Below, piece by piece: positions 2,181 to 31,938 of a DNA stretch of 64,000 bases. The notes under the pieces are model-generated. The model made no database searches. It had not been told where the DNA came from and saw only the letters and a list, made by a program, of their open reading frames with translations. Origin of the DNA: a plasmid. The stretch lies in sequence record CP080654.1; one strand, given 5' to 3'. A program made the translations under genes and the position numbers. Numbering within the stretch: position 1 is the first letter of the stretch; each line of letters opens with the position of its first letter.

Positions 2181-3287
2181 ATGTCTATTGATGCTGTTTT
2201 TGCTCAGTTTTTCGATGATATTCCCGACCCTCGCCAGCATGCCAAGATTTATTATCCTTTCTACGATGTCCTGTTTCTCACCGTCTGCGCAGTGATAGGT
2301 GGCGCAGACGGGTGGGAAGATATTGAAGATTTCGGTGAGGTTCATCTTCCTTGGTTTCAATCCAAGGGGCTGTTTAAAAATGGTATTCCTGTCCATGACA
2401 CCATCGCCAGGATCATCTCCGGTATCAAACCAGAGCCGTTTCAGGCCGCGTTCGTACGTTGGACTCAAGCCATCAACCAGCACACCGAAGGCGCCTTGGT
2501 CGCTATCGATGGCAAAACCCTGCGCAGTTCCTATAACCGTGAAGATCGAACGTCGACCATTCACATGGTAAGCGCCTATGCCGCCGCTAATAAACTGGTG
2601 CTCGGACAGATAAAAACCGACGCCAAGTCCAATGAAATCACCGCCATTCCCGACTTGTTGGCGTTGCTCGACATCAAAGGCTGCCTGGTATCCATCGATG
2701 CGATGGGGTGCCAAACCGAGATCGCCGAGACCATCCTCCAGCAAAGTGGCGATTACTTGTTAGCCGTCAAAGGCAACCAGCCCAAGTTGTTCGAGGCGGT
2801 CCGGCAAGCCCTGGCCCCGCTGGCGGCTACCCCATTATGCGCAGCAACGATGACTCTTGATAAGGCTCATGGGCGCATCGATGGTCGTGAGTACCATATC
2901 ATGGCGGCGGGTGAGTTAGCCGCCCAGTTTCCTCATTGGGAACAGTTGCGCAGTATTGGCGTGGCCATCTCTTATCGCATTGAAAAAAGGGAAAAAATCA
3001 CTATTGAACAGCGTTATTACATCAGTTCCAAAGCACTGACGCGGGATGAGTTTGCACGATCGGTGCGTGGGCACTGGGCCATCGAAAATAGCCTGCACTG
3101 GGTGCTGGACGTCACGATGGGCGAGGACGATTGCCCAATTTATCGCGGTGATGCCGCAGAGATCCTTGCGTGCATCCGGCACATGGGGCTGAACATGCTC
3201 AGGGCTGAAACTTCACGCAAAGCGAGCATCAGACGGAAGCAAAAGATTGCAGGAATGAGCAGTGAATACCTGGAAAAGGTACTCAAT
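2181..3287 (+). pseudogene. tnpA: ISAs1-family (H-repeat-associated) transposase, interrupted 17 codons before its stop by Tn4401. The listed ORF 2148..3365 reads through into the Tn4401 IR
   Basis: Strong family resemblance (MSIDAVFAQFFDDIPDPRQ.. start; ..RGHWAIENSLHWVLDVTMGEDD.. DDE region); reading frame resumes at 13200. Confidence 0.75.
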
Positions 3288-3326
3288 GGGGGGGTAAGCG
3301 GGAACCCCAGAAAATTCCGCCATTCC
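3288..3326. repeat. Tn4401 right terminal inverted repeat (IRR)
   Basis: Tn3-family-like 39-bp IR starting with a G run; mirrored at 13156-13194. Confidence 0.8.
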
Positions 3327-3579
3327 GCATTGTGGAATTTTTTGGGGGGGTGGTCCGCGGCATGACGACCCGCCAAAGGCTACCGCATCTATCTGAGGCG
3401 CTGTGGCGCGACGCTGAAACCCCGGGGAATTCCGCTACTCCAGTTCCAGGTCCGCAATAGTTCGTCCAGGTCGGGTGGCGTACGCCGGAAACGCCGATTT
3501 TTCCGCAACCGTTTCTGCGTTGTCGGCAAGGTGGTCTCAGAGAGCGCTCAAGAAGCGGTTTTTCTCGTATGTTTAGCTA

Positions 3580-5136
3580 CGGTGGCCTAGGAGCCTGCGC
3601 GGCAGAAGCCAAATCGGCGGAAGATCGAGGACGATACGGGGATGGCTGCCAGTTACCTTCCTTACCGACCCGACCAATCCTATCTGCTGCCCCCTTCTCT
3701 GGGAGAGTGGCTACCTGAAGGGCATCTTGCCTACTTCATCAGCGAGACTGTCGATACGCTGGACTTGAGCGCATTCCACGCCCGGTATGCCGGCGGTGGT
3801 CCGGGCAATCAGCCGTTTCATCCGGCGATGATGGTCAAAGTGCTGATCTATGGTTACGCGAGCGGCGTCTTCTCTTCGCGCAAACTAGCCAGGAAGCTGT
3901 ACGAGGATGTCGCGTTGCGTGTGCTGGCCGCTGGAAACTTCCCGGCCCACCGCACGCTGAGTGACTTCCGTGCCCTACACCTGACCGAGCTTGAGAATTT
4001 GTTCGTTCAGGTGGTGCAACTGGCGCGCGAATGTGGGCTGGTGAAGCTTGGCACGATCGCGGTCGACGGCACCAAGGTAAAAGCCAACGCCAGCCGCCAC
4101 AAGGCGATGAGCTATAAGCGCATGAAGCCGGCCGAGGACGAATTGCATTGCGAGATCAAGGCGCTGCTTGATCGCGCCAAGGCTACCGACGACCAGGAGC
4201 GTAACGAGCCGGAGCTGGACATTCCTGCCGAGATTTCTCGCCGCGAGAAGCGCCTGGAGGCGATCCAGGCGGCAAAGGCGCGCCTGGAAGCGCGCCAGCG
4301 TGAAGCGGACCAGGCCCGGGGGCGCAGCGAAGACGATGGCCGCCGGCCTCGCCATCCGGATGGCTCGGACAAGGGCGGTGGCTCGTACAAACGCGAGTTT
4401 GGTGTGCCGGATGACCGTGATCAGGAAAGCTTCACCGATCCGGACAGCCGGATCATGAAACACGCCGGTGGTGGCTCCGAGCAGAGCTACAACGGGTACA
4501 CAGCGGTCGATGCCGAGCACCAGATCATCGTGGCGGCGGAGTTGACCAACTGCGCCGCGGACAGTCAGGCGCTGCTGGGCATGCTGGCAGCAGTTCAGGC
4601 CAACACCGGAGAAATGCCGGCCCAGACGCTGGCGGATGCGGGATTCCGTAGTGAGGCTGTTCTGGCAAAGGTCGCCGATCACCACGGCGATGTCATCGTT
4701 GCCCTCGGCCGCGAGGGACGTGAAGATGCCAAGGTCAATGCCAAGACCCATCCGCATACGGCGGCGATTGCGGCGAAATTGAAAACGGAGCAAGGCGATG
4801 CAGCTTACCGCCGGCGCAAGTCGATCGTGGAGGCTCCGAATGGTTGGATCAAGGCGGTGATGGGATTGCGTCAGTTCAGCATGAGGGGCCTGGACAAGGT
4901 GCAAGCCGAGTGGAAGCTCGTCTGCATGGCGCTAAATCTGAGGCGAATGGCGTATCTGTGAGGGCGAAGGTTAAATGGGGCGGCTCAAATGCACCCCAGT
5001 CGTCATAACACGCCGCGCGCCGCAAGATTGGTATCCTTGGCGCCGACGCCTTGCCAATTGCAGAGAGCGCCGCCGCCATCGTCAGTGCTCTACAGAAAAC
5101 CGGTCACACGGCTCTGCCGCGCAGACTCCTAGCCTA
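3580..5136 (+). mobile_element. IS1182-family insertion sequence (ISKpn6-like) within Tn4401
   Basis: Imperfect terminal IRs ggcctaggagcctgcgcggcagaagcc (3584-3610) and the reverse complement of ggctctgccgcgcagactcctagcc (5110-5134); encloses a 439-aa transposase gene. Confidence 0.55.
3642..4961 (+). CDS. tnpA: IS1182-family DDE transposase (439 aa)
   Basis: Family-typical N-terminus (..FHPAMMVKVLIYGYASGVFSSRKLA..) and DDE region. Confidence 0.8.
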   Translation: MAASYLPYRPDQSYLLPPSLGEWLPEGHLAYFISETVDTLDLSAFHARYAGGGPGNQPFHPAMMVKVLIYGYASGVFSSRKLARKLYEDVALRVLAAGNFPAHRTLSDFRALHLTELENLFVQVVQLARECGLVKLGTIAVDGTKVKANASRHKAMSYKRMKPAEDELHCEIKALLDRAKATDDQERNEPELDIPAEISRREKRLEAIQAAKARLEARQREADQARGRSEDDGRRPRHPDGSDKGGGSYKREFGVPDDRDQESFTDPDSRIMKHAGGGSEQSYNGYTAVDAEHQIIVAAELTNCAADSQALLGMLAAVQANTGEMPAQTLADAGFRSEAVLAKVADHHGDVIVALGREGREDAKVNAKTHPHTAAIAAKLKTEQGDAAYRRRKSIVEAPNGWIKAVMGLRQFSMRGLDKVQAEWKLVCMALNLRRMAYL

Positions 5137-13142: not shown

Positions 13143-13155
13143 ATTTTCATCATAC

Positions 13156-13194
13156 GGAATGACGGAATTTTCTGGGATTCCCGCTTAGAACCCC
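13156..13194. repeat. Tn4401 left terminal inverted repeat (IRL)
   Basis: Reverse complement ggggttctaagcgggaatcccagaaaattccgtcattccg matches IRR. Confidence 0.8.
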
Positions 13195-13592: not shown

Positions 13593-13613
13593 TCCTGGAC
13601 TTTGAGGCACAAT

Positions 13614-13640
13614 AAACCATCATTCGCTGATGGTTTTTTT
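13614..13640 (+). terminator. Rho-independent terminator (ccatca-ttcgc-tgatgg plus T7) immediately followed by the next start codon
   Basis: Stem-loop plus T-run read directly; ATG of the downstream CDS at 13641. Confidence 0.55.
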
Positions 13641-14633
13641 ATGCCTGTTCAAGACGTTATTCCCCCCTATGAGCAGATGTACCTGCTAAATCAGCAGCTG
13701 ATCTGCAACGCTGACCAGTTCAAACATGCCGTTATCACAGTTGGCGGTCAGGCTGTGCAATACTGGATATCCTATTATCATGCACAATACGGCGACAGAT
13801 TGCCTGATGAGCGCCTCACCACATCTGTTGACTGCGACTACAGCGCCCGGAAAGATGATATTGCGGCTATAGCAAAAACGCTCAACGTTAAGACGTGGGA
13901 GAACAAAGACGGTCAGCCCCCATCCCTTGCGCAGTTTATGCTTATCGATCAGGATACACACGATATCAAACGGGATGATGGACGCTTATTTGCCGTACCG
14001 GATGCGCCTGACGAGCCAAATGTGGTGGATATTATCGACCGCCCCGGAGGCTTTGACCGTTCTGATTTTCAGGGGAAAAAGCTTTACCTGTATACCGCCC
14101 CGTTTTATGTAGAAGCAACCGGCCCCGGCATGCCTGAAATGAATGAAAAGGTAAGGGTATTGAACCCTGTTGCCTGTATGCGCTCGCGCTTTAGCAATCT
14201 GATTGCCTTGCGCCGTGATGCTGAAATTGAAATTGCGCGTATTAACGCGCTCAAGATCCCGTGTTATTTCTTTCTCATCGAACAGTTTGATGAACAGCCG
14301 TTCAAAGTTGCACGAGGAATCTTTATGGATTTATGGAGGCTCGCGAATGACGAAAGCTGTCTGCGCCATCAGGCCTTCTGGCATAGCTGGCAGGGGCCGC
14401 TTCTTGAAGGGCAACAAAGTAACAACATCACTCTGATTGATGTGTTGGAAGGCGTACATGTATACCTGGAAGGGCATCTTGATGACTTTGAAATACCGGA
14501 AGCCTTTGTCACCAAAGAAGTACCGCTAAAGCTCGCACAGCTGCGTGAACGCTGGGAGCGTTACGTGGTACTCAATGCTGAATGGGCAGCAAGAGGGCGC
14601 AGGGGATTTGAACGTAATCCCCGTGATGATTAG
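13641..14633 (+). CDS. Hypothetical 330-aa protein of unknown function (listed ORF 13602.. includes 13 non-coding codons spanning the terminator)
   Basis: Long ORF with backbone-like GC; no confidently recognisable motif. Confidence 0.5.
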   Translation: MPVQDVIPPYEQMYLLNQQLICNADQFKHAVITVGGQAVQYWISYYHAQYGDRLPDERLTTSVDCDYSARKDDIAAIAKTLNVKTWENKDGQPPSLAQFMLIDQDTHDIKRDDGRLFAVPDAPDEPNVVDIIDRPGGFDRSDFQGKKLYLYTAPFYVEATGPGMPEMNEKVRVLNPVACMRSRFSNLIALRRDAEIEIARINALKIPCYFFLIEQFDEQPFKVARGIFMDLWRLANDESCLRHQAFWHSWQGPLLEGQQSNNITLIDVLEGVHVYLEGHLDDFEIPEAFVTKEVPLKLAQLRERWERYVVLNAEWAARGRRGFERNPRDD

Positions 14634-14659
14634 CCTCCTTTGGGCTGAAAAATTTGCGC

Positions 14660-14821
14660 ATGTGCAAATCACCGGAGCACACGCTAATAGGCCGTTCAGA
14701 AGGTGAGCGTCAGGCCACTCTGAAAATTGACCGCACCATGCTGCAGAACGGCATTGACCGCAATACCGTCATGAAAATGACCGGTCTGACTGAAGACGAC
14801 CTGGCGCAGATCCGCCACTAA
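14660..14821 (+). CDS. 53-aa ORF resembling the conserved C-terminal tail of Rpn/YhgA-like (transposase_31, PD-(D/E)xK) recombination-promoting nucleases; likely a gene remnant or tail-only gene
   Basis: ..GERQATLKIDRTMLQNGIDRNTVMKMTGLTEDDLAQIRH* pattern; stop codon overlaps the TAATC target duplication. Confidence 0.35.
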   Translation: MCKSPEHTLIGRSEGERQATLKIDRTMLQNGIDRNTVMKMTGLTEDDLAQIRH

Positions 14822-14823
14822 TC

Positions 14824-15030
14824 GGGGGCTGATGCTCAGTCGAACGAAAACTCACGTTAGGCGAGAGAAGTCGTCTGAAAAATCGATTAATGGACAATGG
14901 TGTCCATTAAGTGCCATTTGCCGATTAAAAACACACCGCTTTAGGCACATTTTTCACTGTCCACAATATTCTGATTTATCGGACAAAAAGTCCTTAACGT
15001 GTGAAACCGTTCCGTTGAGCGTCAAACCCC
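14824..15030 (+). mobile_element. 207-bp Tn3-derived inverted-repeat miniature element (TIME), IS101-like, flanked by 5-bp TAATC target-site duplication
   Basis: 38-bp Tn3-family IRs ggggctgatgctcagtcgaacgaaaactcacgttagg (left) and the reverse complement of cttaacgtgtgaaaccgttccgttgagcgtcaaacccc (right); TAATC at 14819-14823 and 15031-15035; no ORF. Confidence 0.8.
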
Positions 15031-15641
15031 TAATCCCCCTTTCCTGGCACTCCCTGTCCGGCCATCAGCGTAAACAGGTGGGGCAGGGAGGTATTCCTTT
15101 CAGGCGCTGCCAGCCAGCCACAGCGGCTGAACAGCGGCATCAGGTCTGCCACATTCCCGGTCAGACGCGTCAGCAGCGGATTTATCTGTCGGCCATTGTC
15201 GTCAAAGGCCGCATCGAGGTGAGTCCGGGAGAGATAAATGCCGTTCACGCCGGCATTCAGGGTGACGGCATACCGGCCGGCCCATTCCCTGTCGTTCAGC
15301 AGGCGGTAGTTCCAGAGCATATCCTTCGCAGTTTCCAGGGCATACGTCAGCCGGAACAGGTCGTTCTGTTCAGACAGCTCGCCGGAGCAGGAGCGCCAGA
15401 GGTAATCCATTTTTTCGGGCAGTCTGGCCTTGATGCCATGCCGTCGCCCCTGAGCCAGCAGCCAGCTGATGTCCTGCGAGACCTCCCGCGGAAAACGCCG
15501 CTGCTTCAGGGCCGTGGCCAGCCAGCGGGTGAGAAAGAGGTTTGCCTGAGCAGCCGACCGGACGCCGCCGTCCTGCCGGGCCAGCGCCAGGGCAATCAGG
15601 CCGCACCAGGCAAGGTGCCCGGACTTATTCAGTTTCGTCAT
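15030..15641 (-). CDS. Hypothetical 203-aa protein (start MTKLNKSGHLAWCGL..); its start overlaps the stop of the upstream FinO-like gene
   Basis: ORF; 17-bp overlap with upstream gene suggests an operon; TAG stop abuts the TIME end. Confidence 0.45.
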   Translation of the reverse strand: MTKLNKSGHLAWCGLIALALARQDGGVRSAAQANLFLTRWLATALKQRRFPREVSQDISWLLAQGRRHGIKARLPEKMDYLWRSCSGELSEQNDLFRLTYALETAKDMLWNYRLLNDREWAGRYAVTLNAGVNGIYLSRTHLDAAFDDNGRQINPLLTRLTGNVADLMPLFSRCGWLAAPERNTSLPHLFTLMAGQGVPGKGD

Positions 15642-31248: not shown

Positions 31249-31938
31249 TTAAGAGGTTATGCAGAAGGAATAGCCCTCTGAGCCAGGGCAGTGCCCGCCT
31301 TTAATATACGACTTCGCCACCTGCCGTCCGGCCTCATCGACCAGGGCATGCAGTGTGGATGGCAATGTTTCAGCCGTGTACTGCAGGCAGACGCAGTAGC
31401 ATTTCACCGGAGGTTTAATCATATCCGGACGTTCAAACCAGCCGGTCGACGGGAAAATCCGTGTGCCGAAGAGCCTGTCAGAAGGAAACTGAGTCTGCAC
31501 GGACCAGGCAAACACGTCGTCAGCGCTGTCGCGGCGATTGACGCCGGGGATATACAGATTTTCTGCTTCGCGGACAACACGGGAGGCAAGAGAGGACAAG
31601 GCGGAGTCATCCGTGCTGGCCGGGCCTTCCACACATATGGAAAGATGGAAGTATTCCGGTTTGCTCTGTGCTTCTGGCTTTGTATCGGGAATAACTGACA
31701 CCGTGTCTCGCTTACGCCCCGTGGAAGACGTCATTAATTTTCTAAAAAATACACCTGCAATGAAAACAAGCAGAAGAATAACTAACGCGCTGCAGATATA
31801 CATGAAGTGGTCACTGAAGAGAGAACAGACCTCGCAATGTGACAGGGAATAACTTTCCCCCACTGCAGGATGTGGGTAAATATCGCCAGGCATCAGTTCA
31901 TGTGTATCAAGAGACCTGACAGGCTCAGATATTGTCAT
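31249..31938 (-). CDS. Hypothetical single-pass membrane protein (about 229 aa) inserted between traT and traD
   Basis: ORF with one TM helix (ICSALVILLLVFIAGVFF), Cys-containing C-terminus; no equivalent in F. Confidence 0.4.
   Translation of the reverse strand: MTISEPVRSLDTHELMPGDIYPHPAVGESYSLSHCEVCSLFSDHFMYICSALVILLLVFIAGVFFRKLMTSSTGRKRDTVSVIPDTKPEAQSKPEYFHLSICVEGPASTDDSALSSLASRVVREAENLYIPGVNRRDSADDVFAWSVQTQFPSDRLFGTRIFPSTGWFERPDMIKPPVKCYCVCLQYTAETLPSTLHALVDEAGRQVAKSYIKGGHCPGSEGYSFCITS

Follow-up and report, generated by a model that had tools for sequence, protein, structure and literature searches.

The DNA analysed here is a 64-kb window (the whole stretch, 64,000 nucleotides) of record CP080654.1, a pKpQIL-type IncFII(K) KPC plasmid. 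At positions 14824-15030 the window contains a non-coding element of 207 bp (44% G+C) that lies exactly between two convergent reading frames; the region around it is identical to plasmid pGR-1870. The element is very probably a non-autonomous Tn3-derived inverted-repeat miniature element (TIME), composed of two 38-bp Tn3-type inverted repeats (IRs) around only a three-subsite res, and a Tn3-flavoured sister of IS101. It thus represents a known kind of system and not a new one, of which it is an unnamed and recently active member. pKpQIL is among the most studied carbapenem-resistance plasmids, yet the element is unnamed in searchable papers. No name or description was found in the searchable literature, including He et al. 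2016 and the paper on the TUM plasmids; ISfinder and TnCentral were not covered. Neither a 2026 survey of TIMEs in Enterobacteriaceae nor a detailed mechanistic paper on pKpQIL evolution names it.

The locus and the insertion event

The features at the locus are as follows.

14654-14821, + strand: C-terminal remnant of an Rpn-family (YhgA-like) nuclease/transposase gene
14819-14823: left target-site duplication, TAATC, which holds the TAA stop of the + strand frame; empty sites have a single TAATC
14824-14861, + strand: IR beside res site III, GGGGGCTGATGCTCAGTCGAACGAAAACTCACGTTAGG, Tn3-type
14872-14985, + strand: predicted res core, subsites III, II and I
14993-15030, - strand: IR beside res site I, inward reading GGGGTTTGACGCTCAACGGAACGGTTTCACACGTTAAG, 30/38 to the Tn3 IR
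15031-15035: right target-site duplication, TAATC, whose TA together with the last element base forms the TAG stop of the DUF2913 gene
15030-15641, - strand: DUF2913 family protein gene, 203 aa, intact, with its stop regenerated by the insertion (RefSeq annotation of pGR-1870 and open reading frame list)

The element begins with GGGGGCTGATGCTCAGTCGAACGAAAACTCACGTTAGG and ends with CTTAACGTGTGAAACCGTTCCGTTGAGCGTCAAACCCC. The largest open reading frame wholly within it is 32 aa, and it has no transposase gene. An earlier note on this DNA had described it as an IS101-like, Tn3-derived miniature element without an internal open reading frame, sitting on the overlapping stop codons of two convergent genes. 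Each part of that description agrees with the Tn3-type IRs, the TAATC duplication, the empty site, the similarity to IS101 and the additional insertions reported below.

Insertion is documented by empty sites. When both flanks, joined by one TAATC, were queried against 72,556 plasmids, the uninterrupted junction (..ATCCGCCACTAATCCCCCTTTCC..) that the earlier note had proposed to look for in related plasmids was found in the homologous backbones p203, pRHB31-C14_2 and pKPC2_095649, where alignment leaves a gap of exactly 207 bp plus one TAATC. Without the element, the stops of the two frames, TAA on the + strand and the DUF2913 TAG on the minus strand, overlap inside CTAA. In the window the + strand frame stops (..IRH-TAA) at 14819-14821, and the DUF2913 TAG is the reverse complement of 15030-15032, with the G supplied by the terminal base of the element. 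The TAATC duplication gives each frame its own stop, leaving both proteins unaltered. These comparisons show that insertion into the pKpQIL backbone generated a 5-bp duplication at the overlapping stops of the rpn remnant and the DUF2913 gene. The same occupied junction is present in 219 plasmid records (60+60-bp junction query), and in ~2,100 more the left-flank match ends exactly at the insertion point. In F-type backbones the insertion site falls in a parA-resolvase-rpn-DUF2913 maintenance region.

The left-flanking frame had been taken for a 53-aa gene in its own right, but it is the remnant of a longer one. Its translation, ending in GERQATLKIDRTMLQNGIDRNTVMKMTGLTEDDLAQIRH and a stop, aligns to the C-terminus of the Rpn protein (316 aa) encoded by pKPC2_095649. 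A complete rpn gene ending at the insertion point is found in many plasmids, and the frame in the window corresponds to its last ~50 codons. In pKpQIL and p203 the N-terminal ~260 codons of rpn are replaced by an unrelated hypothetical gene of 330-343 aa (13602-14633).

The ends, the res site and the relation to IS101

The two ends of the element are related to the IR of Tn3 to different degrees. The left IR matches the Tn3 IR at 34/38 positions, the gamma-delta IR at 26-28/38 and the Tn4401 IRs at 14-16/38; the right IR, read inward, matches the Tn3 IR at 30/38. Compared with each other, the ends agree at only 26/38 positions. The description of both ends as 38-bp Tn3-family IRs stands, but the motif ACGAAAACTCACGTTA quoted for them occurs in the left end only, and the right end has ACGGTTTCACACGTTA there. 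The inner motif of the Tn3 IR has a single match in the window, the left IR at 14824-14861.

An internal res-like site had also been suggested, and by geometry and colinearity the interior of the element is a complete, if predicted, three-subsite res. For reference, the intergenic stretches between tnpA and tnpR were taken from annotated records of gamma-delta (plasmid F) and Tn3 (pKPN-c8b). Resolvase half-sites follow the consensus TGTCYNNTA. The putative subsites, all on the + strand, are listed here.

14872-14896: res subsite III, 25 bp, CGTCTGAAAAATCGATTAATGGACA; colinear with gamma-delta/Tn3 site III, right half-site fits TGTCYNNTA
14901-14935: res subsite II, 35 bp, TGTCCATTAAGTGCCATTTGCCGATTAAAAACACA; colinear with the 34-bp gamma-delta/Tn3 site II, left half-site fits TGTCYNNTA
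14936-14957: II-I spacer, 22 bp, the same length as in gamma-delta/Tn3
14958-14985: res subsite I, 28 bp, presumed crossover site, TGTCCACAATATTCTGATTTATCGGACA; right half-site fits TGTCYNNTA

Alignment of the 114-bp core (14872-14985) with the res of gamma-delta and with that of Tn3 needs no gap, and the three subsites follow in the same order, with lengths and spacers within 1 bp: subsites III, II and I measure 25, 35 and 28 bp against 25, 34 and 28 in gamma-delta, and the III-II spacer is 4 bp against 5 bp. Identity of the core is 58/114 to gamma-delta res, 55/114 to Tn3 res and 86/114 to the core of IS101, where shuffled versions of the core reached 31 +/- 4.7 against gamma-delta res with a maximum of 49 (2000 shuffles). 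Three of the six half-sites fit the consensus exactly and the remaining three carry 1-3 mismatches; by reading of the sequence, the gamma-delta half-sites fit it about equally well. The 64-kb window has 16 exact matches to TGTCYNNTA, three of which sit within the 207 bp. Across 21 distinct family members, the conserved blocks are the half-sites and the IRs, with site III strongly conserved.

The res of the element also differs from those of Tn3 and gamma-delta (Tn1000). It is not flanked by tnpA or tnpR genes, and its identity to either res is only 48-51%, against 75% between those two. In the middle of site I the element has CT in place of the AT dinucleotide of gamma-delta and Tn3; a copy on plasmid pMT1 has TT and IS101 has TC. 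Given the identity of ~50% and the CT centre, the res of the element looks like that of a different Tn3-subgroup parent, from which it appears to be derived. Such a parentage fits the report that the IS101 res works, but poorly, with the Tn3 and Tn1000 resolvases.

The earlier note had further proposed that the element may isolate the transcription of its two neighbours. It would then act as a terminator or insulator separating two convergent transcription units, that of the rpn remnant and that of DUF2913/ProQ. Where sites III and II meet there is a perfect 10-bp hairpin, with UCGAUUUUUC after it on the minus strand (-11.2 kcal/mol, z -3.6), and the whole element, if transcribed, would fold at -69.7 kcal/mol (z -4.8). 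However, the hairpin amounts to two resolvase half-sites lying end to end; it contains 3 G-C pairs, and its U-tract is interrupted. Three terminator-like sites occur in the 1 kb against 1.2 +/- 1.1 in shuffles, and the element is absent from most backbone relatives. A promoter scan returned no promoter-like site in or around the element, so surviving tnpA or tnpR promoters are unsupported, and an Rfam scan of 14500-15300 at E<=1 gave zero matches. Apart from this one weak terminator-like hairpin, nothing points to transcriptional isolation, and a terminator or insulator function is considered very unlikely.

Alignment to IS101, which the earlier note had also called for, revealed homology over the full length of the element. 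With the IS101 sequence of Table S2 of PMC13367494 as reference, 145/210 positions are identical end to end (69%), and the alignment score of 216 is far above that of shuffles (47 +/- 9). The IS101 copy in a pSC101-like plasmid likewise aligns with the element over its full length. IS101 of pSC101 (209 bp; TIME-IS101) is of the same size class, non-coding and plasmid-borne, and has the same arrangement of an IR, 10-12 bp, res III-II-I, ~8 bp and an IR. The threshold used for calling IS101 in PMC13367494 is at least 95% identity over at least 95% coverage; the element, with 69%, falls far below it and is to be seen as related to IS101, not as an isoform. It also lacks the gamma-delta-type IRs of IS101, which match gamma-delta at 33/38 and Tn3 at 27-29/38, whereas the IRs of the element match gamma-delta at 26-28/38 and Tn3 at 34 and 30/38. 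IS101 in turn lacks an atypical block, GGTTTCAC, that is conserved in the site-I-side IR of the element. Judged by its ends, the element would be a counterpart of IS101 that is compatible with Tn3, where IS101 is compatible with gamma-delta. Copies of the IS101 type, with gamma-delta-flavoured ends, are frequent in F-type and ColIa plasmids of E. coli and Klebsiella, as in a ColIa-type plasmid (locus L005, 2984-3192).

IS101 is the founding example of the elements now termed TIMEs; mobilisation by the Tn1000 transposase and a functional res are reported for it (PMC13367494 and PMC4133298, which both cite Ishizaki and Ohtsubo 1985). TIMEs measure about 50-500 bp, and their IRs, of about 38 bp, start with GGGG. 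The Tn3-family IRs, the 207-bp length without a transposase gene and the 5-bp duplication with its empty site place the element described here among them. According to published descriptions, other TIMEs (TIME1-4 of Pseudomonas, TIME244, MITESen1 and IMU) are likewise short and non-coding, with Tn3-family IRs and 5-bp duplications. Unlike the element, TIME244 and IMU have Tn21-subgroup IRs, the res of TIME244 is of the Tn21 type, and neither MITESen1 (256 bp) nor IMU has a recognisable res.

Recent movement and the joining of replicons

Copies of the element at other sites indicate that it has been mobile. Those with perfect 5-bp duplications are listed with the copy in the window.

pKpQIL backbone (the copy in the window): duplication TAATC
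p59493-4.382, K. pneumoniae, ColE1-type: 100% identical, duplication TGTTA
pKLP00155_6, K. pneumoniae, ColE-type: 100% identical, duplication TATTA
pCAV1374-6538, K. oxytoca: 93.8% identical, duplication ACATA
IS66 tnpC on a K99 plasmid, E. coli: 92% identical, duplication GATAC
p504237_36, E. coli: 88% identical, duplication TTTAT

Copies that are 100% identical occupy three further sites, two of them on small K. pneumoniae plasmids, with a fresh 5-bp duplication at each, and two other plasmids match the reconstructed empty site of p59493-4.382 at 100% over 400 bp. On this evidence the very same sequence has gone into other targets, where each insertion made its own 5-bp duplication, and the matches indicate that the element moved recently within K. 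pneumoniae sequence type 258 (ST258). The same copies bear on whether the element is a dead fossil, the immobile solo relic of an ancient Tn3-like transposon that became fixed in the pKpQIL lineage. The very same junction in 219 records, the one atypical IR and the absence of a cognate transposase from the window would be consistent with a fossil. Identical copies with fresh duplications at three more sites, one of them with an identical empty site, argue against it, and it seems extremely improbable.

The third of these sites is in NZ_AP024786.1, an IncN-R plasmid of K. pneumoniae TUM12137, where two exact direct copies (31521-31727 and 108481-108687) separate the halves of the IncN nuc (phospholipase D) gene. 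The 5' part of nuc, ending ..GGCAATAC, lies outside copy 1, and the remainder, starting AATACGGGGCGCG.., lies outside copy 2; the uninterrupted gene reads ..GGCAATACGGGGCGCG.. Comparison of the halves with the intact gene reveals that AATAC is duplicated around the whole ~77 kb. On its inner side, copy 1 still adjoins the pKpQIL flank GATTAGTGGCGG, beyond which come the Rpn remnant, Tn4401 and further pKpQIL sequence. Copy 2 has a different inner flank (..gttatcgggata), implying a later rearrangement at that end. The 77-kb cargo includes two copies of Tn4401 with blaKPC-2, an IncR replicon and, in a Tn1331 remnant, an intact Tn3 tnpR. The nuc junction is present in exactly those 15 ST258 isolates that make up this lineage, all from one patient, and the paper that describes these TUM isolates does not mention the element. 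A junction placed 13 bp outside the element in the IncN-R plasmid was rejected; BLAST had extended the alignment through a chance GAAAGGGG match, and the junction is at the IR terminus.

The bracketed structure is like that of the TIME composites (TIME-COMPs), which can bracket resistance genes including blaKPC-2 (PMC4133298, PMC13367494), in that two direct copies enclose ~77 kb. Composite transposition, an unresolved replicative cointegrate, and insertion into nuc followed by recombination between copies are equally compatible with it. All three routes require insertion of the element into nuc by a Tn3-type event. The arrangement indicates that the element has been involved in joining KPC-bearing replicons. 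With both Tn3-type ends and a res, it carries what joining and separating replicons needs, and its annotation would account for junctions that are now unexplained.

The transposase that moves the element is likely to be supplied in trans. Judged by the similarity of the ends, the best candidate is a Tn3/Tn2/Tn1331-type transposase. Tn3-type transposons occur on K. pneumoniae ColE-type plasmids such as pKPN-c8b, which shares its replicon type with pKLP00155_6, one of the new insertion targets. The earlier note had instead put forward the TnpA of Tn4401. The tnpA of Tn4401, 3.5 kb away, is the sole Tn3-family transposase gene in the window, and Tn4401 is active in the same strains (PMC8565517). 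However, the Tn4401 IRs share only 12-17/38 positions with those of the element, mostly the GGGG and the A-run, compared to 30-34/38 for Tn3, and Tn4401 TnpA is ~25% identical to Tn3 TnpA. Even Tn3 and gamma-delta, with IRs that are far more alike, are reported not to cross-complement, which also counts against Tn4401. Mobilisation by the adjacent Tn4401 was rejected as very unlikely, its IRs being too different. The terminal IRs of Tn4401 are at ~13155-13194 and ~3294-3333 (GGGGTTCTAAGCGGGAATCCCAGAAAATTCCGTCATTC and its partner).

Tn5403 was also rejected as a partner. Its true IRs, as seen in the complete copy in pCAV1374-6538, are unrelated to those of the element, and no similarity to the element was detected in the Tn5403 region of pKpQIL. 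The complete copy (CP011626.1, 1467-5130) is 3,664 bp long with IRs of 39-42 bp. In pKpQIL (NC_023905.1, 21924-25530) the 'recombinase family protein' encoded next to the Tn5403 tnpA shares only 28% identity with the resolvase of that complete Tn5403, which marks the pKpQIL copy as hybrid or truncated.

A mechanism for the element can be proposed from the biology of the Tn3 family and from the experiments with IS101. The DDE transposase of a co-resident Tn3-subgroup transposon (Tn1/Tn2/Tn3/Tn1331-like) would bind both ends of the element, and replicative transposition would join the donor replicon to the target, placing a copy of the element at both junctions. Recombination between the directly repeated res sites by a serine resolvase, also supplied in trans, would then follow, with the crossover in site I and with sites II and III as accessory sites, and the replicons would separate. 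Where resolution is inefficient the fusion would persist, and the element would act as a replicon-fusion or composite-transposon device.

Several observations weigh against the element being a TIME that is mobilised in this way. The window contains no Tn3-type transposase and no resolvase of the Tn3/gamma-delta type, and the mechanism is extended to the 207-bp element by homology. The res core is just ~50% identical to those of Tn3 and gamma-delta, and the centre of site I is CT and not AT. In NZ_AP024786.1 the direct copies stay unresolved despite an intact Tn3 tnpR in the same plasmid; their persistence suggests, without proof, that this res is a poor substrate for Tn3 TnpR. Duplications are missing from many diverged copies, an absence that old age, recombination at res or intramolecular transposition may explain. 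Finally, the site-I-side IR (14993-15030) departs from the Tn3-family consensus in its inner, transposase-binding part, where it has GGTTTCAC and Tn3-family IRs carry the near-universal GAAAACTC. An exact-pattern scan of 185,579 species-representative genomes found no autonomous transposon with this atypical IR. The scan returned 16 loci, 15 of which are miniature or truncated copies in which the IR abuts res site I and never the 3' end of a tnpA; the 16th, in a Bacteroidota metagenome-assembled genome, matches only the 19-bp pattern.

The atypical block (ACGGTTTCACACGTTAAG) is kept in every 207-type copy from eight genera. It is conceivable, though rather doubtful, that the copies represent an old, Enterobacterales-wide lineage of IR-res-IR elements with one canonical and one atypical end, without an autonomous partner that has matching ends or res and with a poorly resolved res, which drives the fusion of pKpQIL/KPC plasmids and the transfer of blaKPC. 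If the common Tn3 resolvase makes poor use of the res, a stable replicon fusion would be the usual outcome of a transposition. In that case this unnoticed 207-bp sequence would be a real driver of pKpQIL/KPC plasmid fusion and of blaKPC transfer to other replicons, with the 77-kb insertion in nuc as one example.

Diverged and partial copies

Diverged copies span 196-224 bp and are widespread. The copy on Y. pestis pMT1 is 90% identical to the element and is present in all 63 Yersinia records. Others are found in Salmonella plasmids, S. enterica subsp. arizonae and diarizonae, Erwinia, Pantoea, Xenorhabdus and Kosakonia, and on five E. coli chromosomes. A plasmid search with the core only returned 788 records with sequence homologous to the res core; the matches inspected were copies or fragments of the TIME, with no res beside a matching tnpR. 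A search of a phage collection returned matches to the Tn3 IR only.

An alternative reading is that the element has been domesticated as a portable res, whose main role would now be recombination or multimer resolution by a plasmid- or transposon-encoded serine resolvase. Such a role would be compatible with its being a TIME. The half-sites are the most conserved internal blocks across the eight genera, several copies are near plasmid 'recombinase family' genes (pMT1, a ColIa plasmid and p504237_36), and the insertion site in F-type backbones is in a region with maintenance genes that include a resolvase. However, the resolvase genes near copies have no fixed position or orientation relative to res, and no resolvase gene adjoins the element in pKpQIL. 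A transposon that needs cointegrate resolution would, moreover, conserve its res equally. Domestication is regarded as improbable.

Some of the more distant copies are paired or incomplete. Erwinia endophytica A41C3 has four copies (locus L026, at 1868 and 4565; locus L035, at 2831 and 4732), which form two direct pairs 2.7 and 1.9 kb apart. The pairs have no flanking duplications, and they could be composites. Degenerate or partial copies are present in prophage tail-fibre regions of the chromosome of E. coli WS3294A (locus L018, 2500-2702) and of Yersinia nurmii (locus L028, ~4168-4298), the latter beside a disrupted gene for an invertase-like serine recombinase. Between spvR and a gene for an IS630 transposase, Salmonella virulence plasmids carry a 57-bp fragment that corresponds to positions 13-69 of the element and is 89.5% identical to it. 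In a Salmonella Dublin plasmid (locus L008) this fragment is at 3001-3057, and it is probably a truncated copy of the element.

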